Source: Candidatus Dormibacteria bacterium
Lineage (GTDB): Bacteria; Chloroflexota; Dormibacteria; Aeolococcales; Bog-877
Length of the DNA: 64,000 bases
Assembly (NCBI GenBank): GCA_050734135.1
Contig: JBOHUG010000054.1
Coordinates: 8,189 to 72,188, forward strand
Direction of reading: 5' to 3'
The position numbers were made by a program, and so were the translations under genes. The notes beneath the pieces are model-generated. The model saw only the letters and a program-made list of their open reading frames with translations, did no database searches and had not been told where the DNA came from. Positions 7,725 to 28,014 of this stretch are shown here, one piece after another. The stretch's first letter is position 1; every line of letters starts with the position of its first letter.

Positions 7725-7744
7725 GCCCCGCCCCCAAGGAGTTG

Positions 7745-8674
7745 ATGGACGTGCTGGAGGTGACCGTACCTGCTACCTCCGCCAACCTCGGTTGTGCCTT
7801 CGACTGCGCCGCGCTGGCGCTCGAACTAGACCTTGTAGTGACGGCGACACCGCTGCCGGCGCCTGAGTTCGAGATCACCAGCCAGGGGGAGGGGGCCGAG
7901 ACGCTGCCCAGGGACTCCGCCAACCTGGTGGTCCAGGGTATCAACCGGCTAATCGCTTGGGCGGGAGTTCCGGCCGCGGGGCTGCGGCTCGAAGTTCGAA
8001 GCGCCATCCCGGTCGGGGTTGGGTTGGGCTCCAGCGCCGCGGCGATCGTCGCCGGACTGCTGATCGGGACGGAGCTGGTGCGGCGGCGCCCAGATGATGC
8101 CACGCTGATCGGTCTGGGGGCGGAGCTGGATGGGCACCCGGATAATGTCGCGGCCGCCTATTTGGGCGGTCTGGTGGTGTCGGCGGGGGGAGGGCCCCTG
8201 AGCCCGGTGCTGACCCGAAAGGCGGAGGTACCGAGGGATCTGGAGTTCGTGGTGGTCATCCCGGATCGACCCCTGGCTACGTCGAAGTCGCGGGCGGTCC
8301 TGCCGGACTCGTACAGTCGCGCCGATGCTGTTCACAACCTGCAGCGCACCGCCCTGCTGGTCGCCTCGGCCTTCTCCGGGGAGTTCAACTTCGAGCCAGA
8401 GTTCTTCGCGGATCGCTGGCATCAGTCTCAGCGGGCGGAGCTGATGCCTGGGCTCAAAGAGTGCCTGGAGCTGGAGCATCCGGACCTCCTCGGGATCTTC
8501 TTGAGCGGGGCCGGGTCGGCGGTGCTGGCGGTGACCAGGCGCGCGGGACCGGAGATCGAGGCCGAGCTCGTGAACCGCCTCCGACGTCAGGGACTGGGAG
8601 CCACGTCGCTCCGGCTCCGGGCTGACAACGAGGGCGCCAAGGGGCGGCTCCGTGGGGAGCTGATCCGCCCGTGA
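7745..8674 (+). CDS. thrB: homoserine kinase
   Basis: GHMP kinase motif PVGVGLGSSAAAIVAG, with homoserine kinase-like length and architecture. ATG at 7745, 6 nt after AAGGAG. Confidence 0.85.
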   Translation: MDVLEVTVPATSANLGCAFDCAALALELDLVVTATPLPAPEFEITSQGEGAETLPRDSANLVVQGINRLIAWAGVPAAGLRLEVRSAIPVGVGLGSSAAAIVAGLLIGTELVRRRPDDATLIGLGAELDGHPDNVAAAYLGGLVVSAGGGPLSPVLTRKAEVPRDLEFVVVIPDRPLATSKSRAVLPDSYSRADAVHNLQRTALLVASAFSGEFNFEPEFFADRWHQSQRAELMPGLKECLELEHPDLLGIFLSGAGSAVLAVTRRAGPEIEAELVNRLRRQGLGATSLRLRADNEGAKGRLRGELIRP

Positions 8675-10080
8675 TCACCCCGGGGCCGCACCTGCGGGTC
8701 ATGAAGTTTGGCGGCACCTCCGTCGGAGACCCGGAGCGGATGGCGGCGACCGCCAGGATCATTCAAGAAAACGCCACTCCTGGTCAGCTGGTGGTGGTCG
8801 TCTCCGCGATGCAGCAGGTGACGGCGTCCCTGCTCGCGGCCGCCACCGCGGCGAGCGCCCGAGAGACAGAGACCTGGCAGGCGATCGGGGAGGAGCTGCG
8901 GCGGCGCCACACCGAGGTCTGCGACGGGCTGGTCGCGGTCGAGGAGCGCCCGGCGATCCAGGCTCAGATCGACGCCGAGCTCTCCACCTTCAAGGACTTC
9001 TGCGTCGGCTTCTCCCTGGTCCGCGAGCTCACCCCCAGGGCTCTTGACTCCCTCTCTTCTCTGGGAGAGGTGATGTCCGCCACCCTGCTGGCCGCGGTGC
9101 TTCGGGCCGGCGGGCTTCGGGCGGAGGCGGTCGACGCCACCGAGGTGATCGTCACCGATGACGGGTTCGGCAACGCCTCGCTCCTCTTCGAGCCCACCAA
9201 CCAGAAGGTTCGGGGCCGCATCGGACCGCTCCTGCAGCGGCGGGTGGTGCCGGTGGTGACCGGCTTCCGGGCGGCCACCAGCGACGGCAGCTGCACCACC
9301 CTGGGCCGGGGCGGCTCCGACTACAGCGCCACCATCCTGGGCGCCACCATCCCCGCCAACGCCATCTGGATCTGGACGGATGTCGACGGAATGATGACCG
9401 CCGATCCGCGGTTGGTGCCGCAGGCTAGGGTTATCCCCGAGCTCTCCTACCGGGAAGCGATCGAGCTGTCGTTCTTCGGGGCCCGGGTCCTGCACCCCAA
9501 GGCGCTCGACCTTCCCTTTCTGGCCGGGATCCCGGTCCTGATCAAGAACAGCTTCAATCCCGGGTCCGCCGGCACCGAGATCGGCGGCTCCCGTCCGAGT
9601 CGCCCTGGGGTCAGGGCCATCGCCTCCACTGCGGAGACCTCCCTGTTCACCGTCTCCGCCACCCGTTCGATGTCCTTCACCCGCCTGGCGGCGCAGGTCT
9701 TCGGGGCGCTGGATGCAGATCGGATCAGCACCCTGGTGGTGACCCAGTCCTCGGCGGAGAACGTCATCTCGTTCGTGGTCAACGGCGCCGACGCGGCCCG
9801 GGTCAGACGGCGGCTGGAGCGGGAGCGGGGATCGCTTCGCGGCGGATCGTCCGTCGCGGCGGTGGAGGAGCTGCCCGACGTGGGGGTGGTGGTGGCGGTG
9901 GGAGAGGGGATGAAGGGCACGCCCGGGATTGCCGCCCGGATCTGCGGCTCGATCGCCCGCTTGGGGATCAACATCGTCGCGATCGCGCAGGGCTCCTCCG
10001 AGCTCAGTGTGTCTCTGGTCGTGAAATCGACTGACCTCCCGGCCGCCGTCGTTGCAATGCACCAGGAGTTCGGGCTCTAA
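8671..10080 (+). CDS. lysC: aspartate kinase
   Basis: N-terminus VMKFGGTSVGD. Kinase domain plus C-terminal ACT domains. GTGA overlap with the thrB stop. Alternative ATG start at 8701. Confidence 0.85.
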   Translation: MITPGPHLRVMKFGGTSVGDPERMAATARIIQENATPGQLVVVVSAMQQVTASLLAAATAASARETETWQAIGEELRRRHTEVCDGLVAVEERPAIQAQIDAELSTFKDFCVGFSLVRELTPRALDSLSSLGEVMSATLLAAVLRAGGLRAEAVDATEVIVTDDGFGNASLLFEPTNQKVRGRIGPLLQRRVVPVVTGFRAATSDGSCTTLGRGGSDYSATILGATIPANAIWIWTDVDGMMTADPRLVPQARVIPELSYREAIELSFFGARVLHPKALDLPFLAGIPVLIKNSFNPGSAGTEIGGSRPSRPGVRAIASTAETSLFTVSATRSMSFTRLAAQVFGALDADRISTLVVTQSSAENVISFVVNGADAARVRRRLERERGSLRGGSSVAAVEELPDVGVVVAVGEGMKGTPGIAARICGSIARLGINIVAIAQGSSELSVSLVVKSTDLPAAVVAMHQEFGL

Positions 10081-10090
10081 AGTCTGGCCG

Positions 10091-11374
10091 ATGGCTCGCA
10101 CCTTCCTGCGTTGCTCGGATCCAGGGTGTGCCCAAGAGAGCGCGGCGATCGGGATCTCCTACGCCTGTGCTACCTGTGGCGGGCTGCTGGAGGTCGGCTA
10201 CCAGTTCGACAGCCCCGACCTTGACCTGTGGCAGGGGGCCTGGCAGCGCCGCCAGCGCGGCAGTGGCGAGGCGGACAGGAGTGGAGTCTGGCGCTTTCGG
10301 GAGCTGCTGCCCTTCCTGTCCGAGCGGGAGCACCCGATCACACTCGGAGAGGGATCCACCCCGTTGGTCAGCTCGCCGGAAGCTGCCAGCTGGGCTGGGC
10401 TGAGCCGCCTGCAGGTGAAGCATCAGGGGGTCAACCCGACCGGATCCTTCAAGGATCTGGGGATGACAGCCTGCATCAGCCACGCCGCCTCCCTGGGCGC
10501 TCGGGTGGTCGCCTGCGCCTCGACCGGGAACACCTCGGCCTCGATGGCCGCCTACGCCGCCCGCGCCGGGATGCCGGCGCTGCTGTTGGTTCCCGAGGGG
10601 GCGGTCTCAAGCGCCAAACTGGCCCAGGCGATCGATTTCGGAGCCCTGGTGGTGGAGACTGGCCAAAACTTCGACCAGGCGCTGGAGCTGCTCCGCCGGG
10701 TCTCGGCCCAGCTCGGTTGGTATGTGGTGAACTCGATCAATCCCTATCGGATCGAGGGCCAAAAGACGGTTGTGGCGGAGCTGCTGGAGCAGCGGGGCTG
10801 GCGGGTACCGGACTATCTGGTGGTACCGGGGGGGAACCTGGGCAACGTCTCCGCGCTGGCCAAGGGGCTGATGGAGCTGGCCAGCTTCGGTCTGATCGCT
10901 AACATCCCTAGGCTGATCGTGGTCCAAGCGGATGGTTCGGATCCCTTCTTCAGGCTGTGGGCTGGCGGGGGAGACACCCTGGAGCCACTGCCAGAGCCCC
11001 ACACCCGTGCCACCGCGATCCGGATCGGAAGTCCCGCCAACTGGTCGAAGGCGCTGCGCGCCCTGCGCTGGTCCGAAGGCAGCTGTGAGTCCGTCACCGA
11101 CCAGGAGATCGCTGCCGCCAAGGAGGCACTGGGACGAGACGGGATCGGCTGCGAGCCCGCCTCGGCCACCACGCTGGCTGGGCTGCGAAAGCTCCGCCAG
11201 GGTGGGCATATCGAGGAGGACGCGGACGTGGTGGCGATCCTGACCGGGCACCAACTGAAGGACGTGGACTACATCCTGGAGCAACGCGCGGCACGGGACC
11301 GGACACTCAGGCTGGAAGCGGACCCAGAAACAGCGGTGGAACTACTCCGGGAGTGGTTGGAGCGGCTCGGCTAG
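10091..11374 (+). CDS. thrC: threonine synthase (ThrC family), paralog 2
   Basis: NPTGSFKDLGM PLP site. N-terminal Cys cluster CSDPGC...CATCGG. About 30% identity to paralog 1. Confidence 0.8.
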   Translation: MARTFLRCSDPGCAQESAAIGISYACATCGGLLEVGYQFDSPDLDLWQGAWQRRQRGSGEADRSGVWRFRELLPFLSEREHPITLGEGSTPLVSSPEAASWAGLSRLQVKHQGVNPTGSFKDLGMTACISHAASLGARVVACASTGNTSASMAAYAARAGMPALLLVPEGAVSSAKLAQAIDFGALVVETGQNFDQALELLRRVSAQLGWYVVNSINPYRIEGQKTVVAELLEQRGWRVPDYLVVPGGNLGNVSALAKGLMELASFGLIANIPRLIVVQADGSDPFFRLWAGGGDTLEPLPEPHTRATAIRIGSPANWSKALRALRWSEGSCESVTDQEIAAAKEALGRDGIGCEPASATTLAGLRKLRQGGHIEEDADVVAILTGHQLKDVDYILEQRAARDRTLRLEADPETAVELLREWLERLG

Positions 11375-11856
11375 CGGCGAGGCAGAGCCCAGGTCGGACT
11401 GGTCGAACAGCTGGAGTTCGGCGGGAGTTGGTGGTTGAAAGAGGCCGGTCCAGTGCGCCAGTTGGTCGGATCGGATTCGGGCGACGCCCCGCTCCGCTCG
11501 CTGATTGCGGAGCTCCAGGCGAATCCAAAGCTCCTCCTTCGGCACGTCCAGGAAAACCAGCTCCACGGTCGCTCTCAGCTCCCGGGCGCCGTTTCGCTTC
11601 TGATCTCGGTCCGAGCGGGACCAGAACCTGGACTCCAGAGTCAAGTGCCGGCCCTGCCGCAGCAGCTCCTGGGCCTGCCGCCAGTACGCCACCTCGAGCG
11701 TCTCACGGACTCGCTCATCGCGAAGGGAGATCCCCAGCAGGGCCATCTGCTCATCGCCGCAGAGTCGGCGCGCCGGCATCCGCTCTGCCAACTGTTTGAC
11801 CAAGTCGTCTTGCCTGAACCGGGGAGGCCACAGAGCAGGGTCAGTCGACCGTTCAC
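11342..11856 (-). pseudogene. P-loop NTPase (AAA-domain ATP-binding/kinase-like protein) interrupted by a -1 frameshift
   Basis: N-terminal part VNGRLTLLCGLPGSGKTT (GTG start at 11856) is in one frame. The homologous continuation LVKQLAERMPARRLCGDEQMALLG...FLDVPKEELWIRLELRN is in the -1 frame. The switch is at plus-strand ccAAgt (about 11801-11804), an AA homopolymer one base short. Confidence 0.55.
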
Positions 11857-11945
11857 CGGTCCTCTCCGAGTTGACTAGTGGCCACAGCGCCTCGAACGTC
11901 GCCGGTCGCAGACCGGGCGCTCTCAGGGGATCGGGCCGGGAGGGC

Positions 11946-12290
11946 TCAGACCCCAGTCAGCTCCTGAAGGCTGGTCTCCTCCGTTAGTGGGTAGTCGAAT
12001 CGGATCACGTCGAACGGACGCTCCCGCACCCAGGCGAGAAAGCTCTGGTGCAGCGGGTGTACCAGGTAGGCAGCGTAGGCGGCGGAGTCGCTGAACTCTG
12101 TAAAGAGTCCGAACTGGTAGCCGTCAGCTCTATCCAGCGTGTCCCTCCCAAACCTCAGCCGGCGCAGCCCCGGTAACCCCGCCCACCTGGCGATCTGGCG
12201 GCGCATCTCATCCTCCACCTCCGCGCCGGAATCCGCCCGGAGCCGGAACAGCACCAGGTGCTGGATTGGTTGGGACGGCGAGGATTCCAC
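11946..12290 (-). CDS. Dabb family stress-responsive A/B-barrel protein
   Basis: 114 aa. The pattern HLVLFRL...RFGRD...YQFGLFTEFSDSAAYAAYLVHPLHQSF is typical of the Dabb / stress-responsive protein dimeric barrel. Confidence 0.7.
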   Translation of the reverse strand: MESSPSQPIQHLVLFRLRADSGAEVEDEMRRQIARWAGLPGLRRLRFGRDTLDRADGYQFGLFTEFSDSAAYAAYLVHPLHQSFLAWVRERPFDVIRFDYPLTEETSLQELTGV

Positions 12291-12317
12291 TACCTAACCC
12301 GTCGTGGTGGGCGGAAG

Positions 12318-13820
12318 CTAGAAGAACTCAAAGTATTCGTTCTGCTCCCACTCGGTGACCTCGACCGAATCGGCGGCGGAGCCGGCCTCCTCAAGGTAGC
12401 GGTTGTACTCAAAACGCTTGAGCATGACCAGGTAGTCGACGATCTCAGGTCCGAGCGCCTGCCGGAAGAACTGGTCCTTCGCCAGTGCCTCTACCGCCTC
12501 CCCCAGGCTGGCGGGCAGGGCTGGGGCAGCCTCCGAATAGGGGTCCGCCTGCACCATCGGGGGCGGATTGAGCTGGCGCCGGATGCCGTCGAGACCGGCA
12601 GCGATGTTGGCGGCCATATAGAGGTAGGGGTTGGCGGCCGGCTCCCCGAGTCGGTTCTCCAGGTGGGACCCCTGGTCCCCCGGCTGCCCCTGGATCCGCA
12701 GCATCGATCCTCGGTTCTCCAGCGCCCAGTTCACCCGGTTCGGTGCGAAGGAGTACGGCTTGAAGCGCTTGAAGCCGTTGACCGTGGGGGTGGAAAAGAC
12801 AGTCATCGGGACTGCGTGCTCCAAGATCCCGGCGGCGAACTGGCGCCCGGTCACCGAGAGGGCCCCTTGGTCGGTGCTGGCGAAGGCGTTGCCGCCCTGG
12901 TCGGCGTCTTGGAGGGATTCGTGCAAATGCCAGCCGCTCGACGACACGTTGGGGATCCGAGGCCGGCACATGAAGGTGGCGTGGTAGCCGAGCTGGTGAC
13001 AGATCTGCTTGGTGGCGGTTCGGAACAGGATCATGCCGTCGGCGGCTCCCAGGCCGAGTTGGGGGTCGAAGGTGATCTCCGTCTGGCCGGGACCCCACTC
13101 ATCCTCCATGGTCCGGAGCGGCAGCCCAACCGCCTCGAGATGGTCCCGCAGGGGATCGAGTACCTCGCTGATCTGGGCGAGCCTGGTTTCGGAGAGGTAC
13201 TGATAGCCCTGGGCCACGACGCTCACCGGGGGCGCAGGCGGCGGCCAGCCGGTCTCGTTTAGGCCGATCTTGAGCTGCTCTCGGCGGAAGATGTAGAACT
13301 CCACCTCCAGTCCCGCCGCGTACTCGAATCCGAGCTCCCGGGCGAGCTCCAGCTGCCGGCGGAGCACCTGGCGGGTGAAGAGCGACACCGGCTTGCCGTT
13401 GCTGAAGTGGGCGTCCGAGAGCACCCAGGCCGTCTGATTAGCCCAGGGCAGGAACTGGAAGGTAGTGGGGTCGGGCACAAGGACCACATCTGGGAAGCCG
13501 GTCAGCTCAGGGATTCCGAAACCGCCCCCTTCCACGAACGCTGGGGGGAAGACCTTGTTGGCGGTGTCGAGGCTAAGGATGGCCCCCGAGAAGTCGATCC
13601 CGTTGCGGAGCGACAGCAGGAAATCATGAGCCGAGACGAACTTGCAGCGAACCGCCCCGTGCTGGTCCACCACGCCGATGCGCACCGTCCGGACTTCCTG
13701 CTCAGAGACCAGGGCGGTGGCCCGCTCGGCAGCCGCCCGCATGGCGTCGGTGAAAAGGCCGTGCTGCTCGATGAATCCCACCTTGCCAACGGCCAGGTCC
13801 TGCACTGACGTGCTGCTCAT
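12318..13820 (-). CDS. glutamine synthetase family protein (GlnA-like gamma-glutamyl:amine ligase)
   Basis: 500 aa. GS catalytic-domain motifs (EVEFYIF, MCRPRIPNVSSSGWHLHESL, NRGSMLRI) resembling the GlnA3/PuuA/GmaS-type gamma-glutamyl-amide synthetases. Confidence 0.8.
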   Translation of the reverse strand: MSSTSVQDLAVGKVGFIEQHGLFTDAMRAAAERATALVSEQEVRTVRIGVVDQHGAVRCKFVSAHDFLLSLRNGIDFSGAILSLDTANKVFPPAFVEGGGFGIPELTGFPDVVLVPDPTTFQFLPWANQTAWVLSDAHFSNGKPVSLFTRQVLRRQLELARELGFEYAAGLEVEFYIFRREQLKIGLNETGWPPPAPPVSVVAQGYQYLSETRLAQISEVLDPLRDHLEAVGLPLRTMEDEWGPGQTEITFDPQLGLGAADGMILFRTATKQICHQLGYHATFMCRPRIPNVSSSGWHLHESLQDADQGGNAFASTDQGALSVTGRQFAAGILEHAVPMTVFSTPTVNGFKRFKPYSFAPNRVNWALENRGSMLRIQGQPGDQGSHLENRLGEPAANPYLYMAANIAAGLDGIRRQLNPPPMVQADPYSEAAPALPASLGEAVEALAKDQFFRQALGPEIVDYLVMLKRFEYNRYLEEAGSAADSVEVTEWEQNEYFEFF

Positions 13821-13868
13821 TTACCTCTCCTCCTCTTGCGGGCTCCGCCGCCGATCAGCCGCCGGAAG

Positions 13869-14594
13869 TCACCCCGTCGCCGCCCGACGGTCGGTCCGGC
13901 TCAGACCGAGCGCCACCACCTCTCCGGCGGCGAGCCTAACGCGGTGACTGGCGTCAGGGAAGCAGAGGCTGAAGATGGCCTCGTCCGCCGAGTGGAGGGC
14001 AGTGCTGGCAATCTCGGCTCCCTCCAGCTGGAAGCGCCAGCCATCGTTCTCCGGATTGCCGGCGTAGAACAAGAACTCTCCCGTGGCCCCCAGAAACGCC
14101 AGGTTGGCGTTGCCCTCCATCTGCCGATGCACCTCCGGGAGCGCGGAGCTCGCAGCCATCCCCTCGCCCACGAGCTTCTCGCAGAGCCGGAACCCGACCT
14201 CGCTGTCGGCCTCACCGTCCAGCTGACCCGGGAAGCTGGGCCTAAAAGAGTGAGCCCCGGCCAGCCGGCCGTTGTGGGCGAAGGCGAAGGAGCCGTCGTC
14301 GGCCACAAAGGGCTGGGTGTCGGCCAAGGAGACAGTGCTGAGCCGGGAGGGGCGGCGGAGGTGGAGCAGGTAATGGCTGGAGCTGATCTCTCGCAGCTCG
14401 CGCCGGCCCGTCTGGTCATCGCTCAGCTTGCCCGGGTTTCGGTAGCGGCGCACCCGCCCGTTCTCCCGCCAGGCAAGACCCCACCCGAAGCCACCAATGC
14501 CGAGCTGCTCCAGCTGAAGCCCCCAAGGGAGCACCCGCTCAAAAGGTTGGGGCTCGGGCCAGACGATCCCCAAGATTTCACACATGGAGCTCAT
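13869..14594 (-). CDS. class II (Ntn) glutamine amidotransferase domain protein
   Basis: Begins MCEILG, so the nucleophile Cys immediately follows the initiator Met. This is the hallmark of GATase-2/Ntn hydrolases (EgtC/YafJ-like). Confidence 0.75.
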   Translation of the reverse strand: MSSMCEILGIVWPEPQPFERVLPWGLQLEQLGIGGFGWGLAWRENGRVRRYRNPGKLSDDQTGRRELREISSSHYLLHLRRPSRLSTVSLADTQPFVADDGSFAFAHNGRLAGAHSFRPSFPGQLDGEADSEVGFRLCEKLVGEGMAASSALPEVHRQMEGNANLAFLGATGEFLFYAGNPENDGWRFQLEGAEIASTALHSADEAIFSLCFPDASHRVRLAAGEVVALGLSRTDRRAATG

Positions 14595-15222
14595 CCGCTC
14601 GCGACCCGTTGCCGTCCCCGGGCCGGCTGCGGTCCAGGGCCGTCTCAGCCAGGAGGGACTCGGCCAGTTCTAGATCGAAAGATTTGGGGGGCAGCTCCCC
14701 GAGACAGAGCAAGGTCTCGGTGCGCTCGATCCCGCTGATTCTCCAGATCCGCTCGAAGAGCAGCTCGCGCAGGTGCGCCTGGTCACGGGCCCGCAGTCGC
14801 ACCAGCAGGTCGGAGTCGCCAGTCACCACCTCGACCTGCTCTACTTCCGGAAGCTGTCGCAGGTCCTGGACGGTTGCGGACTGCTCGCTGCCCTGCACCC
14901 CAGTCACCCGCACGTACACCAGGAGCCCGTAGCCGAGACGGCCCCAGTCGATCTCCGCCCGGTAGCCGCGAATCACCCCCTGGCGCTCCAGGCGGGCGAT
15001 CCGCTCGGCGACGGCGGGGGCCGACATGCTCACCTCCGAGGCGATCCCGCGTACCGAGCGGCGGGCGTCGCGGAGCAGCAGCACCAGGATCTGGAGATCG
15101 ATTGGGTCGAGGGCAGGCTGAGGAACCGAGGGCGCTGCCGGGGAGCTAGGTCCTGCCGCACCATCAGTAAGGTGGCGGACCGCTTTCACCGCCAAGTCGC
15201 GAGGGGCGCCATCGCTTGCCAC
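14578..15222 (-). CDS. Lrp/AsnC family transcriptional regulator
   Basis: HTH LDPIDLQILVLLLRDARRSVRGIASEVSMSAPAVAERIARLERQGVI followed by a RAM/AsnC C-terminal domain. GTG start at 15222 gives a 45-aa N-terminal extension, and the exact start is uncertain. 17-nt overlap with the GATase gene. Confidence 0.7.
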   Translation of the reverse strand: MASDGAPRDLAVKAVRHLTDGAAGPSSPAAPSVPQPALDPIDLQILVLLLRDARRSVRGIASEVSMSAPAVAERIARLERQGVIRGYRAEIDWGRLGYGLLVYVRVTGVQGSEQSATVQDLRQLPEVEQVEVVTGDSDLLVRLRARDQAHLRELLFERIWRISGIERTETLLCLGELPPKSFDLELAESLLAETALDRSRPGDGNGSRADELHV

Positions 15223-15372
15223 CTTTCCATGTTATCGGTAAATGCCTAATTCGGCTATCATTTGCGACTGGGGGCCCGTGGGGTCGCCCACCCGAGGTAC
15301 AGGGACGGCTTCGGCAGGAATGGAGGGGCGGGTGGAGATCGTCTGTTCCCGGGCATCCAGGGGAGACCAGCG

Positions 15373-15795
15373 ATGAGCCTCGCGGATAAGTACTTCGCCG
15401 CACCCGGGTCGGGCAAGGCCCCCACCAGCCGGGGACACTTCCTGGATCTGGAGCGCGACGGGGAGCCGGTCAGTTTCGTGCCCGGCCTGGAGTTCCGCCC
15501 CGCCCTGGGGGAGAGCACGATGCTCAACTCGGTGCGGTTCGCCGCCCACACCGTGGCACCGCTCCACAGTCACGATGAGGAGCAGCTGACCCTGGTGGTC
15601 GAGGGCGAACTGGAATTCGAGATCGATGGCGAGGTGCGGCTGATGACGCCCGGGATGGTGGCGGTGATCCCAGCGAACGTCCCCCATGGCGGCCGGACGG
15701 GCGATGTTCCGTGCCACGAGTACGACGTCTTCAACCCGCCCCGGCAGGCGCTGCTGGCGCTGCGGGGGCAGAGTCTGCCCGAGGCGGGCGGTTAG
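15373..15795 (+). CDS. cupin domain protein
   Basis: Cupin motifs HSHDEEQLTLVVEGELEFEIDGE and PANVPHGG. Start at MSLADKYF. Confidence 0.6.
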   Translation: MSLADKYFAAPGSGKAPTSRGHFLDLERDGEPVSFVPGLEFRPALGESTMLNSVRFAAHTVAPLHSHDEEQLTLVVEGELEFEIDGEVRLMTPGMVAVIPANVPHGGRTGDVPCHEYDVFNPPRQALLALRGQSLPEAGG

Positions 15796-15798
15796 CCG

Positions 15799-16581
15799 GT
15801 GGACCTTAGCCTTCGGAGCCGGCGCGCCATCGTGACGGGCGGCTCCAAGGGGCTGGGTGCGGCCATTGCCAAGGAGCTCCTGGCAGAGGGAGCCGCGGTC
15901 GCGATCTGCTCCCGAAACCAGGACGAGCTGGCGGCGACCGCCCAGGAGCTGCGGCGCGGTGGGGGCCACGTCGTAGCCCAGGTCGCCGATGTCACCAATG
16001 CTGACCAGCTCAACGGTTTCATCAGTCACGCGGTGGCCGAGCTCGGCGGTCTCGACGTGCTGGTGAACAACGCCGGGCGGGCTCACCCGGGCACCTTCGC
16101 CACCTTGACCGACCCCGACTTCCAGGCGGATCTGGAGGTCAAGCTCTTCTCCCAGATGCGCTGCAGTCGGGCCGCGCTGCCCCACCTGCGGGAGGCTGGC
16201 GGGGGCGCCATCATCAACATCAACGCCATCTACGGTCGCCAGCCTGACCCCGCCTTCTTCGCCACCTCGGTCGATCGGGCCGCCTGCCTGGCGTTCAACA
16301 AGGCCCTGGCGATGGAGCTCGCTCCGGACCGAATCCTGGTCAACAGCGTCAACATCGGCTTCGTCCGCACCCCCCAGTGGCGAAACATCCACCAGCGGCA
16401 GGCCCCGGAGCTGAGCGAGGACGAGTTCCTTGCCCGGACCGCGGCCGCCGAGGTTCCCCTGGGCAGGTTCGGGGAGGCCGAGGAAGTCTCAGGGCTGGTC
16501 GCCTTTCTGGCCAGCTCCCGGGCCAGCTATATCACCGGGGCGTCCATCGACGTCAGCGGTGGCATGGGGAGGTACGTATGA
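15799..16581 (+). CDS. SDR family oxidoreductase
   Basis: TGGSKGLGAAIA Rossmann motif, NNAG, and a catalytic Y...K region. Confidence 0.8.
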   Translation: MDLSLRSRRAIVTGGSKGLGAAIAKELLAEGAAVAICSRNQDELAATAQELRRGGGHVVAQVADVTNADQLNGFISHAVAELGGLDVLVNNAGRAHPGTFATLTDPDFQADLEVKLFSQMRCSRAALPHLREAGGGAIININAIYGRQPDPAFFATSVDRAACLAFNKALAMELAPDRILVNSVNIGFVRTPQWRNIHQRQAPELSEDEFLARTAAAEVPLGRFGEAEEVSGLVAFLASSRASYITGASIDVSGGMGRYV

Positions 16582-17552
16582 CCACGGCTGGTGAGATCGT
16601 CTACTTCGCCGGTGAGTTCGTGAACGAGGACCAGGCCCGCATCCCCATCACCGCGCACGCCTTCAACTACGGCACCGGTTGCTTCGAGGGGATCCGCGCC
16701 TACTGGAGCGACCAGCGCGAGCAGCTGTTTGTAATCCGGCTTCCAGAGCACCTCCAGCGGATCCTCCGCTCGGCTCGGATCCTGCGCCTGGAGCCCGATC
16801 CCGCCCTCACAGCGTCCAAACTCGAGGAGATCATCCTGGAGCTTCTGGCCCGCAACAACTACCACCAGGACGCCTACGTCCGCCCGATCATCTACAAGGG
16901 GGGCCACACGATCAAGGTCACCCTCTCGGGGATTGCCACGGAGTTCTGCTGCTACACCCTGGCCATGGGAGAATACCTGGACATCCGCAAAGGGCTGCGG
17001 ATGATGACCTCCAGCTGGCGCCGCATTGACGACAACGCCATCCCCGCCAGGGCAAAGCCAACTGGTGCTTATCTCAACGCCGCCCTGGCTGCCGACGAAG
17101 CCCGTTCGCTGGGATTCGACGAAGCCCTGATGCTGACCCATGACGGCCAGGTCGCCGAGGCTTCCTCAGCCAATCTCTTCATGGTCCAGGACGGGGTCCT
17201 GGTCACGCCCCCGGTCACCGATGACCTGTTGGTCGGGGTCACCCGGGACTGCGTTATCACGATGGCGAAGCAGAGGGGCTGCCAGCTCGAGGTTCGACAG
17301 ATCGACCGCAGTGAGCTCCTGGCGGCCGATGAGGCGTTCCTCTGCGGTACCGGTGTCCAGATCGCCCCGGTGACCAGCATCGATGGCCGCCAGGTCGGGA
17401 ACGGCCAGTCGGGCGAGATGACCAAGCAGCTCCAGGACTGGTATCTGCAGGTCGTTCGGGGCGAGGTGGAGGATTTCTCCAGCTGGCGCACGGCAGTGGA
17501 GCCGATCGCGCTGCCAGCAGGTCGCGGAGCGAGCCAAGGCACAAGGAGGTAG
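16579..17552 (+). CDS. class IV aminotransferase (branched-chain amino acid / D-amino-acid aminotransferase family)
   Basis: Start MTTAGEIVYF overlaps the upstream stop. PLP fold-type IV motifs (FNYGTGCFEGIRAY, ...EASSANLFMV...). Confidence 0.8.
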
Positions 17553-17555
17553 GGG

Positions 17556-18002
17556 ATGGCGTTGGTGCACCTCGTCGACGAGTCGGAGGCAGAGGGCGTG
17601 GTCAAGGACGTCTACCAGGAGATCATGACCAGCCGCAAGCTGGCCCAGGTACCCAACTACTGGAAGGCGCTCGCTAATCAGCCAGCCCTGCTTGCTGTCA
17701 CCTGGGAGAAGCTCAAGGTGGTGATGGCCGAGGGCGCGCTGGACCGGCAGACCAAGGAGATCATTGCGGTGGCGGTCTCCGCCACCAACAACTGTGACTA
17801 CTGCCTCAACAGTCACACCGACGCGCTGCGAGGGCTGGGGCTGGGCGACGCCGAGCTGGTGGAGCTGATGGCAGTGGTCGACTTTTTCAACGGTTCGAAC
17901 GCTCTGGCATCGGGGCTCAAAGTCGAATATGTGCCCCCGGTGCCCGAGGAGGAAGAGAGGCCGCTCGCGAGCGGATCAGAGAGCAGGAAGGAGGGGACCT
18001 AA
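17556..18002 (+). CDS. carboxymuconolactone decarboxylase (CMD/AhpD-like) family protein
   Basis: 148 aa with the AhpD-like CxxC motif NNCDYCLNSHT. Confidence 0.7.
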   Translation: MALVHLVDESEAEGVVKDVYQEIMTSRKLAQVPNYWKALANQPALLAVTWEKLKVVMAEGALDRQTKEIIAVAVSATNNCDYCLNSHTDALRGLGLGDAELVELMAVVDFFNGSNALASGLKVEYVPPVPEEEERPLASGSESRKEGT

Positions 18003-19523
18003 ATGGCGACCAGCGAAACGATCGCGGGTGCCGGGAGCCAGGCGGCCACCGGCGAGCTGCGAAAAGGGAGTCTGCGCACGATCGACGCGGTGGCGATGGC
18101 TGTCGCGGTGCTGGCACCGGCGATGGCCATGGCCTACAACACCAGCGGTTCTGCGGCCTTCTCGGGGACCTCGACCCCGCTGGCGTTCCTGATCGGTGGC
18201 ATTGGCTGTCTGGCACTCGGATTTGTGGTGATCGGATTCACCCGCCGGATGGCCTCGGCCGGCTACGCCTACACCTACTCCAGTCGAACCTTGGGCAAGC
18301 GGGTCGGCTTTCTCACCGGGTGGATGTATTTCTTTGGGTTCTTCTGCTTTGTTCCGATGACCATGAGCGGGGTGGGGGGCTTCACCGCCTCCTTGATCCA
18401 GACCGAGGTGTGGCACAGCGAGCCCAGCTGGTTCTGGTTCCCCATCTTCCTGGTGGGGATGGCCTGCCTGGTGACGCTCTCGGTGCGGGGGGTCAAGCTC
18501 AGTGCCAAGGCGCTGCTTTGGGTGGGAGCGGTCACGGTCACGGTGATCGTGGTCCTGGACATCATCCTGACCGCCAAGGGCGGGAAATTCGGGCAGACCC
18601 TGCAACCCTTCACCTTCGGGCACACCCTGCAGGGAGGCTTCAGTGGGATCTTCTACGGACTGATCTTCGGGGTCACCTCGTTCATCGGATTCGAGACCGC
18701 CGCTGTTCTCGGCGAGGAGACTAGAAACCCCCGCAGGGCGATCCCGATCTCAGTGCTGGTGGCGGTCTGTTTCGCGATCATCTTCTATGTGTGGACCACC
18801 TACAACATCGCCATCGGAGTTGGGGTCAACAAGGCTGGATCCACCGCTTGGGCCACCAATCCGGCGATTCTGGCGACGCTGGCCAAGACCTACGTCGGTA
18901 CCCCGATGATGATCCTGGTGGATTTGGCAGCGATCGGATCCGCCTTTATCGTCTGCCTCGCCTGCGCCACCGCAGCCACAAGAACCCTCTTCGCGATGGG
19001 TCGGGAAGGTGTGTTGCCGGCTTGGCTGGGACGCACGAACAAAATCACCCGGACACCCTCCAACGCGATCCTGATGCTCGCCGGAGCGGCCACGGTTTCC
19101 GCCTTCGTCAGCGGCATCCTCTGGAACTTAGGCCCCTCCAATAACTATTTCTTCTACGCCAGTGTCGGCACGATTGCCGTGTGCTTGGTCTATGTGGTCC
19201 TCTGTGTTGGCGGTTCCGTCTACTTCCGGCGGATCGCCCAGCGCTACAACCCGCTGGTGCACGGGCTGGTACCGGTGATCGGGATCGTCGTCTTCGGGCT
19301 CGCGGTCTACGGCTCGATCTACTCGGGGGCGGTACCACCGGCGCCCTACACCTACGTGCCCTACGTCAACCTGGGCTGGCTTGTGGTCGGCATTCTGTTC
19401 GTGGCCTACCTCTCCCGGACTGCACCGGACAAGGTGGGTCAGATCGGCTCCATCCTCGGCGAGGAAGGGGGGGAGTCCGCCGCCATTCTGGACCAGCCCA
19501 GCATTGCTCCCGCTGGCGGCTAG
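18003..19523 (+). CDS. APC family amino acid/polyamine permease
   Basis: 506 aa with 12 predicted TM segments in the APC superfamily pattern. ATG directly abuts the upstream TAA. Confidence 0.8.
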   Translation: MATSETIAGAGSQAATGELRKGSLRTIDAVAMAVAVLAPAMAMAYNTSGSAAFSGTSTPLAFLIGGIGCLALGFVVIGFTRRMASAGYAYTYSSRTLGKRVGFLTGWMYFFGFFCFVPMTMSGVGGFTASLIQTEVWHSEPSWFWFPIFLVGMACLVTLSVRGVKLSAKALLWVGAVTVTVIVVLDIILTAKGGKFGQTLQPFTFGHTLQGGFSGIFYGLIFGVTSFIGFETAAVLGEETRNPRRAIPISVLVAVCFAIIFYVWTTYNIAIGVGVNKAGSTAWATNPAILATLAKTYVGTPMMILVDLAAIGSAFIVCLACATAATRTLFAMGREGVLPAWLGRTNKITRTPSNAILMLAGAATVSAFVSGILWNLGPSNNYFFYASVGTIAVCLVYVVLCVGGSVYFRRIAQRYNPLVHGLVPVIGIVVFGLAVYGSIYSGAVPPAPYTYVPYVNLGWLVVGILFVAYLSRTAPDKVGQIGSILGEEGGESAAILDQPSIAPAGG

Positions 19524-19605: not shown

Positions 19606-20703
19606 ATGATTGACAGCCACGTTCACCCAGTCACCGGGGAGGGCGAGGCGCTCGATTTCAGCGCTATCTCCTTGGAAGTGCCGGGGGATAGGGCCGCTCG
19701 AGACCGCCGCGCGCGGGTGGCCCCCGGGCGACTCAGCCAGGAGTTGATGGCGGTGCGGCTGGCTAGCTACCTGTGCTGCGAGGTGGAGGAGCTGGGAGTG
19801 GCCCGGGCCCAGGCCAGCGCTCATTGGCCGGGGTATGTGGCGGGACTCTTTGCCGACGCCCGGATTGAGGGCGTGGTGCTGGACCCCGGCACCTACCTGG
19901 CGGACCCGGCCCCGGGCGCCGCCGAGATGGCCGCGGTCAGCGGGGCGGTGGTCCGCTCGATCATGCGCATCGACCCGCTGGTAGATCTGCTGATCGCCGA
20001 GGGTCAGACAGCAACCGAGATACTTGCCGCTGCCGAGCAGGCGGTGCGCCTGGCGCCTGGGCAGGGATACGTCGGGTTGAAGACGATCCTCGCCTATCGA
20101 ACTGGACTCAAGGTGGACCCGGGCGCCACCCTGAAGGACGCCGACGCCTCCCTGCGCACTACCAAAGAGCTTCCGACCAGACGGCGAGGCAAAGCGCTGC
20201 GAGATCTGATCTGTCGGCAAATGTTGGGCTGGGCCGCCGAGCTCGGACTGCCGATTCAGTTCCATACCGGATTCGGCGATTCGGAGATCCGCCTGAGCGA
20301 GGCCAACCCGCTCTTCCTGGAGGAACTTCTGCTGACTGCGGAGGGGACGGCTGCCACCGTGGTTTTGATCCACGGCGGCTACCCCTGGCACGAGGAGCTG
20401 GCGTATCTGGCGCTGGTCCGTCCCAATGTTTACGCCGAACTCTCGCTCTTCAACCTGTTCGCCCCGGCACGAACCGCGGAGCGGCTGGAGCGGGTGCTGG
20501 AATTGGCACCTGCCTCCCGGGTGCTGTGTGGCACCGACGGGCACGGTGCGCCGGAGTCGTACTGGTACGCCGCCCATGAGCTGAGGGCCGGCTGGGCCGT
20601 GGTGCGCAAGAACTGGGCCGCGCGCGGGGCCCGCAAGGCCTGGCTGTCCGAGTTGGAAGATGCCATTTTCCGAGGTAACACGGCCCGCCTGTATCAGTTC
20701 TAA
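19606..20703 (+). CDS. amidohydrolase family protein (metal-dependent TIM-barrel hydrolase, amidohydrolase-2 like)
   Basis: N-terminal MIDSHVHP metal-binding His pair, plus QFHTGFGD and HGGYPW motifs. Confidence 0.7.
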   Translation: MIDSHVHPVTGEGEALDFSAISLEVPGDRAARDRRARVAPGRLSQELMAVRLASYLCCEVEELGVARAQASAHWPGYVAGLFADARIEGVVLDPGTYLADPAPGAAEMAAVSGAVVRSIMRIDPLVDLLIAEGQTATEILAAAEQAVRLAPGQGYVGLKTILAYRTGLKVDPGATLKDADASLRTTKELPTRRRGKALRDLICRQMLGWAAELGLPIQFHTGFGDSEIRLSEANPLFLEELLLTAEGTAATVVLIHGGYPWHEELAYLALVRPNVYAELSLFNLFAPARTAERLERVLELAPASRVLCGTDGHGAPESYWYAAHELRAGWAVVRKNWAARGARKAWLSELEDAIFRGNTARLYQF

Positions 20704-20866: not shown

Positions 20867-21790
20867 TTAGTTGAAGAGCGCGAGCGGCATGCACATGGCC
20901 ACATTCCACATCCCTGCGTCAACCACCTCCAGGATTCGCAGTTGCCCGGCGAGGCTGCAGAGGACATAGGCGTCCTCACGACTCAGTTCGTGTTCCTCAG
21001 ATAGCCAGGTGATCATCGCTCTAGTCGCGGTCTGCGCTCCTTGCATCAGGTCGGGCGCGAGCCCCATCACGCAGTACTCCTCCGATGCCGCCCTGCTCCC
21101 TCCCGCGCCGGGATTGAGGAATGCCGGAGCTGCCAGCGATCGCTTCTGCAGGGTGAAGCGCAAGCTGGCCTGGAGCGGGGATTCCAGGGCTGTGATGCAG
21201 ACCTCGCCGTCCCCCTGAACCGCGTGCGGGTCGCCACACGAGAAGAGGGCTCGGGGAAGGAAGACCGGCAGGTACAGGCGCGACCCCTCGGTCAAATACC
21301 GGTTGTCGATGTTGCCCCCGCCTCGATGCGGAGGAAAAGGTGAGAGCCGCACTCCGCCGCCCGGATTGACGCCCATCGTGCCAAGGAACGGCCGGTAGGG
21401 GATGCGGATTCCGGGGGAGAAGTCAACTCCTAGTTCTGAATCCAATGCGAAGGTACGCAGATAGCCGTCCGGAAAGTCACTTGCGAGTAGGCCGAACCCA
21501 GGCAAAATGGCGGCCCATCCCCACTTGCTGCGCACCAGCTCCAGAACCTCGATGCAGAGCGTATCGCCGGCCTCTGCCCCGACCACCGCAACCGGGCCGC
21601 TCAGGTTGTACATGGTCTCGAAATCGAATCGAACATCGTCAAAGTGGTCGCCGAGCTTGACCTGCCCGGAGCCAGCAACCTGGAGATCGAAGTGGACTAC
21701 GTCGCCCGACTCGACTTCAAGGATCGGCGCTAAGGATTCGTCCCAGTCGTGGTGAATCCGGGCAGAATCGGTGACGTGCTCGCGGCTCAC
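20867..21790 (-). CDS. acetamidase/formamidase (FmdA/AmdA family)
   Basis: 307 aa. FmdA_AmdA-family motifs (NLSGPVAVVGAEAGDTLCIE, GNIDNRYL, CGDPHAVQGDGEVC). GTG start. Confidence 0.8.
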   Translation of the reverse strand: MSREHVTDSARIHHDWDESLAPILEVESGDVVHFDLQVAGSGQVKLGDHFDDVRFDFETMYNLSGPVAVVGAEAGDTLCIEVLELVRSKWGWAAILPGFGLLASDFPDGYLRTFALDSELGVDFSPGIRIPYRPFLGTMGVNPGGGVRLSPFPPHRGGGNIDNRYLTEGSRLYLPVFLPRALFSCGDPHAVQGDGEVCITALESPLQASLRFTLQKRSLAAPAFLNPGAGGSRAASEEYCVMGLAPDLMQGAQTATRAMITWLSEEHELSREDAYVLCSLAGQLRILEVVDAGMWNVAMCMPLALFN

Positions 21791-21792
21791 GC

Positions 21793-22668
21793 TCAGCCTC
21801 CGGATTCTAGGCGAGCCAGGAAGGTGCGCAGGCGCGCTAAGTAAGCGGGGCGCTCCTCGAGAAAGGCGACATGCGCACTGTGCTCGAAGAGAGCCAGTTC
21901 GGCGCCAGGGATAGAGCGGGCCAAGAGCTCCATGTGCTCCGGACGCGCCTCGTCGAAACGGCCACCTGTCACCAAGGTGGGTATCCTGATCTGCCCCAGC
22001 CGATCGACCACCTCGAAGTTGACCAGCTCGCCAGTTACTGGTCCGAATTCGCTGGGACCCCAGAGCGTGGTGTAGACCTCCCCACCGAGGCCATTGAAGG
22101 TTTGCTCGATGCAGTCCGGCCAGGGCGAGAGTCGGCAGAGGTGTCGGCGGTAGAACTCAGCGACTGCGCCCTGATACTCGGGGCAAGCAAAGAATCCTGA
22201 CCGCTCATGGTTCTCCAGCACCGTCTGGACATCAGCTGGTAGCGCGCGTCTCAACTCGGCCGCGTCAGCCAACCAGCGGACAACGCTCACCGGAGTGCTG
22301 CTCAAGATCAGCCCGCGGAGCTGGGGGGCACGCTCGAGCAGGTACTGCAGGGCGAGCATGCCTCCCCAGGAATTACCAAAGAGCACCATCTCGTCGAGTC
22401 CGAGCGCAGTTCGAACCGCGATCAGTTCTTCCACGAAACGCTGCACCGTCCAGGTGATGCTTCCCGCAGCCGCTGGTGATCGGCCGCACCCCAGCTGATC
22501 GTAGAAGATGACCGGACGCTCATCACTGAGGTCGGCGAGAGGCTCCAGATAATCGTGTGGCATCCCCGGTCCGCCGTGAAGGCAGAGGATTGGGGTGCCC
22601 GAGCGATCCTCGCCCGCGATGCAGTACCAAACTCTACCGTCGGCGACATCGATGAACCCTTCAGTCAT
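21793..22668 (-). CDS. proline iminopeptidase (alpha/beta hydrolase, prolyl aminopeptidase family)
   Basis: LHGGPG, GNSWGG nucleophile elbow, and length and architecture of S33 prolyl aminopeptidases. Confidence 0.8.
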   Translation of the reverse strand: MTEGFIDVADGRVWYCIAGEDRSGTPILCLHGGPGMPHDYLEPLADLSDERPVIFYDQLGCGRSPAAAGSITWTVQRFVEELIAVRTALGLDEMVLFGNSWGGMLALQYLLERAPQLRGLILSSTPVSVVRWLADAAELRRALPADVQTVLENHERSGFFACPEYQGAVAEFYRRHLCRLSPWPDCIEQTFNGLGGEVYTTLWGPSEFGPVTGELVNFEVVDRLGQIRIPTLVTGGRFDEARPEHMELLARSIPGAELALFEHSAHVAFLEERPAYLARLRTFLARLESGG

Positions 22669-22710
22669 GGGGCCTTCTGACCGCCGGGTACACGAGGTCG
22701 GCCATCGGCC

Positions 22711-24165: not shown

Positions 24166-24625
24166 TTTCTCCCTCCTTCTCCGCGGGCGGGTTCGGCGTC
24201 CTCTTTCGACCCCGAAGGGACCGCGCTCCGCCAGGGCGACGCTACTGCGGGAACTGGCTGACTGTCAACCGCATCCGTTTTTGAGAGAAACCCTCGGCTG
24301 GGTTCGGGACGTCTTGCTACGTGCGAGCAGATTCCCGATCAGTTTCGGCGCCGGCCGCTGGCCCCGAGCTCCTTGAGATCGGTGGTGGATTGTTGACATG
24401 GAGACAATCCGGACCGATAATCCCCAGACCACGGGTACTGTCGGGCGGGCTGGGGTTCCAGCAGAGCGAAGTGCCCTGACCGGTTCGGGTCGCACACAGG
24501 AGGGGAGGGCGTGCCAACGGAGCGAAGTGGATGCGTCCGGCCGAGGCTCCCCGGGACCACAAGCCAGCGGCCCCCGGACTCAGGTCGTTGGCACTCCGGA
24601 GCGCTCGGGCAGGGGCATCACCGTC

Positions 24626-25576: not shown

Positions 25577-25811
25577 ACGCCGTCGCGGACGCACGGAACT
25601 TATTCCGAGGGCGCTCCAAATTCCCGCCGCCGGCTCCTCGAACGGGCCCTAGAACACGACCGATCGAGCCTCTCACCCACAGGGAACCCGGGTCTAGGTT
25701 TCCTATCTCGGTGGATCTCCCGACTGATCCAGCAAGTGAACTACCGCGGCGGAGTCGAAGGGAGTGGCCGTCCTCGCGGCCTGAGTCGCGCTAATACAGG
25801 AGGAAGGAAGG

Positions 25812-27242: not shown

Positions 27243-27297
27243 CAGGCTGAGCAGAGTCGTGAGGAGGCGAGTTGGCACCGCTTTTAGAGGAGTCTCG

Positions 27298-27936: not shown

Positions 27937-28014
27937 CCCGCGGATGAGAGTCGCGCAACGCGATCAAGGGCCGCGACAGGGGAGCAGTGGCCGCGCGACT
28001 TATCACGTGAAGGA

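Follow-up and report, generated by a model that had tools for sequence, protein, structure and literature searches.

What does a glutamine synthetase (GS)-fold enzyme do when its gene lies directly beside a gene for a stand-alone class-II glutamine amidotransferase (GATase)-fold protein? This question is raised by a locus of Candidatus Dormibacteria bacterium, located in a 64,000-nucleotide stretch of contig JBOHUG010000054.1 that we refer to as "the window"; the class-II protein is referred to as "GAT2". Bacteria repeatedly use gamma-glutamylation to deal with amines that are reactive or toxic; putrescine, isopropylamine, ethanolamine and anilines are examples. To our knowledge, the described gamma-glutamylation routes all remove the glutamate by means of class-I GATase-like hydrolases. 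On balance, we lean toward the view that the locus, a conserved cluster of ten genes, serves amine catabolism or salvage by transient gamma-glutamylation, with the GS-like protein as the putative ligase and GAT2 as the putative hydrolase, probably under the control of an Lrp/AsnC-family regulator. Our confidence is high for the description of the gene cluster, moderate for the make-and-cleave mechanism, and low for any particular substrate.

The window has a G+C content of ~66% and derives from a metagenome-assembled genome; its GAT2 and amidohydrolase proteins are 100% identical to NCBI entries that carry the name Candidatus Dormibacteria. Genes were called from an open reading frame (ORF) listing together with Pfam and NCBIfam scans, to which curated cutoffs were applied, and 20 neighboring genes were scanned for domain families. 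No tRNA genes or Rfam families were found in the 64-kb window. An alignment of GAT2 homologues was used as a profile in a scan over GTDB, with one genome per species, giving 79 loci taken from the best 80 of 337 genomic hits; all window proteins were then searched against these 79 loci. We refer to loci as "informative" if GAT2 identity is at least 46% and at least 3 kb of flanking sequence is available on both sides (43 loci); the partner radius for GS genes was 8 kb. The searchable literature holds no account of the ten-gene cluster, with one older comparative paper that possibly touches on GS-amidohydrolase neighborhoods not being covered.

The minus-strand operon

The preliminary description of this locus proposed that a GS-fold enzyme adjoins a stand-alone class-II GATase protein, with an overlapping Lrp/AsnC regulator next to them. 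All three genes are found on the minus strand, where a fourth gene completes the operon:

14578-15222, minus strand: Lrp/AsnC-family regulator, first gene of the minus-strand operon (PF13404 and PF01037 over cutoff)
13869-14585, minus strand: GAT2, stand-alone class-II (N-terminal nucleophile [Ntn], Cys1) GATase-fold protein, 238 amino acids (aa) (GATase_4)
12318-13820, minus strand: predicted GS-fold gamma-glutamyl-amine ligase (GoaS type), 500 aa (Pfam Gln-synt_C, 275 bits)
11946-12290, minus strand: Dabb (stress-responsive alpha/beta barrel) protein, final conserved gene of the minus-strand operon (PF07876, 55.9 bits)

The lrp stop codon and the GAT2 start overlap by 8 nt (ATGTGTGA, as read from the sequence), and both AsnC-type domains of the regulator score over their cutoffs, as expected from the preliminary description. 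GAT2 and GS are separated by 48 nt, and GS and Dabb by 27 nt. The idea of a GS/GATase "pair" stands with respect to adjacency and co-localization (see below), but the pair is only part of a conserved, divergent cluster of ten genes that the first reading overlooked. The cluster consists of two tightly packed operons, lrp-GAT2-GS-Dabb on the minus strand and cupin-SDR-IlvE-AhpD-like-APC permease-amidohydrolase_2 on the plus strand (SDR, short-chain dehydrogenase/reductase), that diverge from a spacer of ~150 bp upstream of lrp. Judged from the coordinates, gaps within the operons are 0-48 nt, plus one of 82 nt.

The GS-like protein

The best PDB match of the GS-like protein is 8wwu (402.6 bits, E 2e-119, covering query residues 13-498). 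The next entry scores 184 bits, with bona fide GlnA structures at no more than 173 bits, GmaS structures at 126-148 bits, and PA5508 at 95 bits. The 8wwu structure is that of NpaA1, an enzyme of Pseudomonas sp. JS3066 that attaches glutamate to 1-naphthylamine and to anilines (PMC11335346). In a neighbor-joining tree, the window protein falls in one clade with the GS genes of other GAT2 loci, and the sister clade comprises NpaA1, the TdnQ-like protein of Delftia pLME1, and two uncharacterized plasmid proteins (40-50% identity).

Three familiar assignments were considered and rejected. Housekeeping GlnA is excluded by the score for TIGR00653 (213.6 bits, cutoff 429.15), by an identity of 27% to E. 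coli GlnA, and by the loss of the ammonium site described below. PuuA is excluded by the score for NF045547, the gamma-glutamylputrescine synthetase family (238.3 bits, cutoff 650), and by an identity of 24% to E. coli PuuA. The GmaS/MgsABC assignment is excluded by the score for TIGR03105, the type III/GmaS family (240.9 bits, cutoff 469.6), and by the absence of mgsB (GXGXG) and mgsC (FMN glutamate-synthase) domains from the 20 neighboring genes. The preliminary description depended on the protein not grouping with GlnA, and no such grouping is seen, with 27% identity to GlnA versus 40-50% to the NpaA1/TdnQ group.

The residues of the active site give a similar picture. The metal ligands E129, E131, E212, E220, H269 and E357 (S. 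typhimurium numbering), the ATP/phosphate residues H271, S273, R339, R344 and R359, and the glutamate residue R321 are kept by the window protein and by GS at related loci. By contrast, the ammonium site is lost: the flap residue E327 is replaced by F358, S53 by G100, and N264-G265 by S293-S294, while the region around D50 is ambiguous in the alignment owing to an insertion. The position of Glu327 is occupied by Phe in the window protein, by Leu in NpaA1 and TdnQ, and by Tyr in PuuA. The tunnel residues of NpaA1, W235 and F86', are retained, as are its amine-binding residues E232 and E234, and the N-terminal pocket loop ("motif 15") is present. NpaA1 V201 corresponds to Tyr in the window ligase, and the pocket loop of the cluster GS clade has a conserved Asn, with His, Lys or Arg at the next position. 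From these sequence features we infer that the GS-like protein can act as an ATP-dependent gamma-glutamyl ligase on an organic amine, and that it is related to the arylamine ligases while lying outside their subgroup.

The closest relatives of the GS-like protein from cultured organisms are encoded on plasmids of Streptomyces tendae (L080) and Methylobacterium aquaticum (L081), with identities of 48-49% by tblastn and 49-50% in the trimmed alignment. The S. tendae gene has a CN-hydrolase, a class-I GATase and a GntR regulator as neighbors; next to the M. aquaticum gene are genes for the alpha subunit of a Rieske oxygenase and for an ABC substrate-binding protein. Both loci are further uncharacterized gamma-glutamylation modules. 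No GAT2 partner was found beside the GS relatives on the S. tendae, M. aquaticum and Delftia plasmids, where the partners are a class-I GATase or Rieske genes.

The class-II protein

The mechanical ORF of GAT2 starts at 14594 and encodes MSSMCEILG, whereas the ATG at 14585 gives MCEILG. We place the start at 14585 because at least 90% of the rows in a 30-row homologue alignment share M1 and C2; the original observation that the protein begins MCEILG, with Cys directly after the initiator Met, is thereby upheld. Once Met is removed, this Cys is predicted to be the N-terminal nucleophile.

GAT2 scores 33.2 bits for Pfam GATase_4 (cutoff 23), and a sequence search of the PDB yields one clear match, the YafJ-like protein PA1307 (E 3e-9). 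An AlphaFold model built on the family alignment has a pLDDT of 92. It matches the glutaminase domain of GlmS with a TM score of 0.76, EgtC with a TM score of 0.66, and PurF, all three at a probability of 1.00. In class-II proteins, Arg, Asn-Gly and Asp residues bind the alpha-carboxylate and alpha-amino groups of the glutamyl moiety and form the oxyanion hole. The equivalent residues R77, N105-G106 and D127 are, like C2, invariant in the GAT2 family and align with PurF R73, N101-G102 and D127, as well as with GlmS and YafJ.

Sequence identity to characterized single-domain relatives is low, at 16-18% to EgtC and 25% to YafJ. EgtC, which acts in ergothioneine biosynthesis, is a stand-alone class-II domain that cleaves the gamma-glutamyl amide of a bulky substrate. 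An assignment of GAT2 as EgtC itself was rejected, with a TIGR03442 score of 24.2 against a cutoff of 218.65 and no egtA, egtB, egtD or egtE among the 20 neighboring genes. Among these genes we also found no synthase partner, and GAT2 has no fused synthase domain. A profile search over 1.84 billion representatives returned 60 family members at E<=1e-30 and 203 at E<=1e-10. A tblastn search of 72,556 PLSDB plasmids gave no match at E<=1e-8, hence no cultured plasmid-borne example. GAT2 belongs to a small, previously uncharacterized subfamily. The most economical reading, by analogy with EgtC, is that GAT2 is a hydrolase that frees glutamate from a gamma-glutamyl amide.

Conservation of the cluster

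Had the two genes been separated in other genomes, there would be little reason to link them, as the preliminary description recognized. A GS-like gene lies within 8 kb of GAT2 in 38 of the 43 informative loci, and directly downstream on the same strand in 29; their adjacency is not due to chance. Other members of the cluster are similarly persistent. The lrp gene is found in 31 of 43 loci, and directly upstream of GAT2 in 30. Cupin, SDR and amidohydrolase_2 genes are each found in 32, Dabb in 28 (mostly right behind GS), IlvE and AhpD-like genes in 27 each, and the APC permease in 17.

The whole block recurs in Dormibacterota, whereas the gene order is shuffled in Actinomycetota and Acidimicrobiales. 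Orders and orientations differ at L031, L036-L038, L042, L047-L049 and L052, which belong to Actinomycetota, Acidimicrobiales and, in one case, Dormibacteraceae. Retention of the gene set through rearrangement argues for a functional unit rather than inherited synteny alone.

A variant cluster at three loci (L032, L034 and L057) has GAT2 proteins 42-50% identical to that of the window and a GS of a different clade, 33-37% identical. Its layout is GntR-SDR-GS-APC-aldehyde dehydrogenase-GAT2-NSAR-like racemase (enolase superfamily)-SDR-class-V aminotransferase, with an additional CN-hydrolase at L032 (NSAR, N-succinylamino acid racemase). This is the classical layout of Puu, Ipu and GlnA4 clusters (ligase, alcohol dehydrogenase, aldehyde dehydrogenase, hydrolase), with GAT2 in the position of the class-I hydrolase. 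The variant clusters thus offer independent evidence, by analogy, that the GAT2 family may be the deglutamylase of such pathways. A gene of the NSAR/OSBS subfamily accompanies GS-like and GAT2 genes in 7 of 43 loci as well as in the variant clusters; the NSAR-like protein scores 291 bits to 1sja, the N-acylamino-acid racemase of Amycolatopsis, and exceeds the TIGR01928 cutoff. The window lacks homologues of the class-I/II aminotransferase, class-V aminotransferase and CN-hydrolase that occur at related loci.

Some GAT2 relatives are found in other contexts. At L001, a close relative whose GAT2 is 78% identical, the GS gene is cut to a 223-aa remnant (L001:8766-9437; region L001:1445-4600) and the APC permease is absent; this looks like either a decaying cluster or a mis-assembled region. 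At L061-L079, in Limnocylindria and other Chloroflexota, GAT2 relatives of 39-44% identity lack every cluster partner and lie right behind a gene for an Lhr-like helicase of ~1560 aa and near a cyanophycin-synthetase-like gene, both of which were named from their translations. These relatives are probably a separate orthologue group with a different role.

The regulator and the intergenic element

The Lrp/AsnC protein scores 48.4 bits for PF13404 and 59.9 bits for PF01037, and is below the cutoffs of all named NCBIfam equivalogs, including Lrp and AsnC. By these scores it is a member of the Lrp/AsnC family other than E. coli-type Lrp. The spacer between lrp and cupin varies among 11 Dormibacterota loci, except for a block of 44 bp directly upstream of the lrp GTG:

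15223-15266, no strand assigned: AT-rich conserved element, candidate operator/promoter (from an alignment of 11 Dormibacterota intergenic regions)

The element has the largely invariant consensus CGCAAATGATAGCCGAATTAC..CCTTTACCGATAACATGAAAAG, within which the blocks ATGATAGCC and ACC.ATA.CATG hardly vary, if at all, across the 11 regions. It is a plausible operator/promoter. A TAACAT hexamer in the element stops 6 nt ahead of the lrp GTG, and this nearness to the start of lrp would fit a leaderless lrp mRNA. Scans of positions 11200-15900 for sigma-70 consensus promoters and intrinsic terminators found nothing. The overlap of lrp with GAT2, the synteny, and the conserved upstream element together suggest that the Lrp/AsnC protein probably controls the cluster.

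The plus-strand operon and Dabb

The plus-strand operon contains six genes:

15373-15795, plus strand: small Cupin_2 protein, opening the plus-strand operon (PF07883, 51.9 bits)
15799-16581, plus strand: SDR (adh_short_C2, 175 bits)
16578-17552, plus strand: class-IV aminotransferase, IlvE-type branched-chain transaminase (NF005146 and TIGR01122 over cutoff)
17556-18002, plus strand: AhpD-like/carboxymuconolactone-decarboxylase-family protein with a CxxC motif (PF02627, 66 bits; TIGR00778 match)
18003-19523, plus strand: APC-superfamily amino-acid/amine permease (AA_permease_2, 120 bits)
19606-20703, plus strand: Amidohydrolase_2 protein of the 2QPX type (binuclear-metal signature H5, H7, K159, Y164, H220, H256, D311)

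The cupin start was set to the ATG at 15373 because a conserved block of Shine-Dalgarno sequence and ATG aligns there. The IlvE ATG overlaps the SDR stop codon by 4 nt (ATGA), and the APC permease gene begins right behind the stop codon of the AhpD-like gene. The family of the aminotransferase is well defined, with scores of 336.5 for NF005146 (cutoff 279) and 311 for TIGR01122 (cutoff 246). The SDR scores 245 for PRK07062 (cutoff 266), and its PDB matches are 3lf1 (PA3507) and TsaC. The binuclear-metal signature of the amidohydrolase (H-x-H, K, Y, H, H, D) is invariant. For the APC permease, NCBIfam gives weak matches (BcaP, ethanolamine, tyramine and others), none of which reaches its cutoff. 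The best PDB match of the cupin is 4e2g, with weaker matches to KdgF and BacB; the AhpD-like protein matches the ahpD core domain (TIGR00778) and, in the PDB, 2ouw best. PDB searches with the cupin, Dabb, AhpD-like and SDR proteins returned mostly structural-genomics entries, the characterized matches (KdgF, BacB, olivetolic acid cyclase, TsaC) being weak or distant, and gave no usable functional clue for these four proteins.

A possible pathway

The preliminary description suggested that the GS-like ligase and a solitary class-II hydrolase make and cleave a gamma-glutamyl amide. This suggestion gains support from the glutamine-site residues of GAT2, all of which are kept, and from the gene content of the cluster, which includes no MgsB, MgsC or class-I GATase gene. 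In the pathway that we envisage, the substrate would be imported by the APC permease. The 2QPX-type amidohydrolase may first free the amine from an amide or cyclic amide, following the logic of the FluG and NodGS fusions. The GS-like enzyme would then use ATP to form gamma-glutamyl phosphate, which an amine, rather than ammonia, would attack to give an N-gamma-glutamyl amide. The SDR and cupin would alter this glutamylated intermediate, along with the NSAR-like racemase and aldehyde dehydrogenase in some relatives. The Cys1 Ntn protein would cleave the gamma-glutamyl amide bond and free glutamate, a role played elsewhere by the class-I hydrolases PuuD, IpuF and TdnT. Lastly, the released amino acid would be deaminated by the IlvE-type transaminase.

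Clues to the substrate are indirect. The presence of IlvE and Lrp, the aromatic tunnel kept in the ligase, and the NSAR of related loci point weakly to a hydrophobic or branched-chain amino-acid-like compound. The fusion of an amidohydrolase domain to a GS-like domain in FluG, NodGS and theanine synthetase lends support to a functional link between amidohydrolase and ligase in the window, where the amidohydrolase might provide or convert the amine that the ligase uses. A more elaborate version of the pathway, which we consider speculative and rather doubtful, is that the cluster would be a bacterial equivalent of the FluG/NodGS "amidohydrolase + GS-like" system, with unfused genes and a dedicated Ntn deglutamylase, in which gamma-glutamyl is a removable N-acyl handle and the whole is a gamma-glutamyl counterpart of the N-succinyl pathway for D-to-L conversion of amino acids. 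Its substrates would be hydrophobic or branched-chain amino compounds, e.g., D-amino acids, amino alcohols, or amines released from amides; these could be oxidized or racemized while glutamylated and then leave as L-amino acids for IlvE.

Several observations weigh against amine catabolism by transient gamma-glutamylation. GAT2 occurs without a nearby GS in 5 of 43 loci. Two of the loci without a GS within 8 kb, L056 and L058 from Actinomycetota, instead combine GAT2 with a class-I/II aminotransferase, an SDR and IlvE, and the Limnocylindria relatives of GAT2 (39-44% identity) have no cluster partner at all. No NSAR, aldehyde dehydrogenase or oxidase was found in the 64-kb window, leaving the chemistry between ligation and hydrolysis unspecified. 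The nearest characterized relatives of the ligase act on arylamines, yet a Rieske dioxygenase is absent. The closest solved relatives of the cupin, AhpD-like and Dabb proteins are structural-genomics entries from which no roles can be derived, and IlvE could be just a housekeeping enzyme that happens to be located here. As a separate observation, sulfatases and a PQQ-propeller protein are next in line at L056 and L058.

Alternative explanations

A cluster with these genes might also be biosynthetic. Its product could be a gamma-glutamyl metabolite, for example a signal or a compatible solute of the kind proposed for FluG/NodGS and theanine, or it could be a modified amino acid that is temporarily protected by gamma-glutamyl during synthesis and deprotected by GAT2. 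Aminotransferases and SDRs are frequent in amino-acid tailoring, EgtC serves a biosynthetic pathway while being a structural relative of GAT2, and the combination of amidohydrolase_2 and GS-like proteins is the domain pair of FluG, NodGS and CsTSI, which are thought to make signaling metabolites (PMC6478659, PMC9909507). However, the cluster includes an uptake-type APC permease and an Lrp/AsnC regulator but no exporter, non-ribosomal peptide synthetase/polyketide synthase (NRPS/PKS) or ATP-grasp gene; its surroundings are nitrogen-catabolic, with formamidase, arginase-family genes and permeases; and the variant clusters resemble the catabolic Puu and Ipu operons in having an aldehyde dehydrogenase and a GntR regulator. 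We consider a biosynthetic role unlikely.

Two further explanations concern the GATase fold itself. GAT2 shares its glutamine-site residues with the glutaminase domains of PurF and GlmS, which are also its best structural matches, and it could be a true glutamine amidotransferase subunit that channels ammonia to a partner in the cluster while the GS-like enzyme regenerates glutamine or makes an amide independently. Such a subunit is hard to reconcile with the lack of a fused synthase, with the absence nearby of asparagine synthetase, the GltB FMN domain, GXGXG, and phosphoribosyltransferase (PRTase) or sugar isomerase domains, and with a GS-like partner that has no ammonium site; moreover, stand-alone class-II proteins of known function, such as EgtC, are hydrolases. 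This makes a channeling subunit quite improbable. The other explanation is ordinary nitrogen assimilation or methylamine metabolism, in which the GS-like protein would be a GlnA paralogue or GmaS and GAT2 a subunit of the glutamate synthase (GOGAT) or MgsA type. MgsA of the N-methylglutamate pathway is indeed a stand-alone class-II GATase-like subunit, the Gln-synt_C domain is present, and TIGR00653 and TIGR03105 give sub-cutoff matches. These scores are, however, about half of each curated cutoff, with 27% identity to E. coli GlnA; GmaS structures reach 126-148 bits versus 402 for NpaA1; the flap Glu is replaced; and genes like MgsB, MgsC, GltB or GltD are absent from the cluster. The nitrogen-assimilation explanation is largely refuted, and we give it hardly any weight.

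Genes flanking the cluster

On the Dabb side, the cluster is flanked by thrB, aspartate kinase (ask) and thrC (window 7742-11374). In other Dormibacterota (L017, L021-L024 and L035), the thr genes lie on the amidohydrolase side, which a simple inversion of the whole cluster explains. A link to the threonine pathway was set aside, given this inversion and the absence of thr genes at the Actinomycetota loci; the thr neighborhood is probably not functional. A kinase-like ORF at 11342-11803 on the minus strand matches the AAA_33 Pfam profile only from position 16, apparently without the P-loop, and its homologues adjoin the cluster in only three loci. Right behind the cluster, at 20867-29784, is a second island of nitrogen-compound genes. 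It encodes an acetamidase/formamidase, an alpha/beta hydrolase, another APC permease, two arginase-family proteins, an NCS1 permease (cytosine/purine/allantoin type), a DUF1989 protein and a GntR/FCD regulator.

Comparison with known systems

The aniline and naphthylamine systems (AtdA1/TdnQ/DcaQ/NpaA1 with AtdA2/TdnT/NpaA2) provide the closest characterized relative of the window ligase, at 40-44% identity over the full length. These arylamine ligases share with it a C-terminal WEQxEYF tail, an EDEW motif, and the tunnel residues W235 and F86'. The logic is also shared, in that a ligase is combined with an enzyme that reverses glutamylation (PMC11335346). The differences are considerable. The aniline hydrolase is class-I GATase-like, as seen in the Delftia pLME1 reference, whereas that of the window is a class-II Cys1 Ntn protein. 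A Rieske dioxygenase and ferredoxin reductase are present in pLME1 and absent from the window and related loci, and the LysR regulator of aniline systems has no counterpart in the window cluster. The cluster GS genes form their own sister clade, with Tyr in place of V201 and a pocket loop of Asn plus a basic residue.

The Puu (E. coli putrescine), Ipu (isopropylamine) and Streptomyces GlnA2/3/4 systems resemble the cluster in their scheme of ATP-dependent glutamylation, modification, and hydrolytic release of glutamate, with a permease and a regulator clustered. Their hydrolase is of a different superfamily from GAT2, their oxidase and aldehyde dehydrogenase are absent in the window, and the window cupin, AhpD-like, Dabb, 2QPX-type amidohydrolase and IlvE proteins have no counterpart in them. 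EgtC, YafJ and PA1307 are, like GAT2, single-domain Cys1 Ntn proteins of ~230-250 aa with the same fold and glutamine-site residues; GAT2 differs from EgtC in having no egtA, egtB, egtD or egtE neighbors and in forming a separate small subfamily.

FluG, NodGS and the tea theanine synthetase CsTSI carry an N-terminal amidohydrolase/nodulin-like domain fused to a GS-like domain, and 2QPX is the closest solved template of the FluG N-terminal domain (PMC6478659, PMC9909507). The two functions that are fused there are separate genes of one conserved cluster in the window, which adds an Ntn hydrolase and six further genes. The likeness of the window amidohydrolase to FluG is via their common closest solved structure, 2QPX, and not via the FluG sequences themselves. 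The cluster gives an operon context to this combination of amidohydrolase_2 and GS-like proteins, and its substrate, once identified, could suggest candidates for the presumed fungal and plant signals of FluG and NodGS.

A hypothetical parallel can be drawn with the N-succinyl pathway. According to Sakai et al. 2006, as cited in PMC12006748, NSARs racemize N-succinyl amino acids in an irreversible D-to-L conversion pathway. Gamma-glutamyl is chemically close to succinyl, and the ligase would take the part of the succinyltransferase, the racemase that of NSAR, and the hydrolase that of the desuccinylase. The pathways differ in their donor (succinyl-CoA versus glutamate plus ATP) and in their hydrolase (an M20 peptidase versus an Ntn hydrolase). 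We offer this parallel as a hypothesis for the GAT2 family and not for the window locus, which has no NSAR gene. If true, the link between gamma-glutamyl and NSAR at related loci would define a new salvage route for D-amino acids or amino alcohols.

Judged by its sequences, the cluster would work like known gamma-glutamylation pathways, yet it falls outside GlnA, PuuA, GmaS/MgsABC, the aniline dioxygenase systems and EgtC. It would bring to these pathways a second, unrelated family of deglutamylases (class-II Ntn) and a new set of accessory enzymes. Both would come from Dormibacterota and from uncultured Actinomycetota of soil, phyla about whose nitrogen metabolism very little is known. What distinguishes it from all of these systems is the class-II Ntn deglutamylase that we propose, the 2QPX-type amidohydrolase, and the accessory set of cupin, AhpD-like, Dabb and IlvE proteins.

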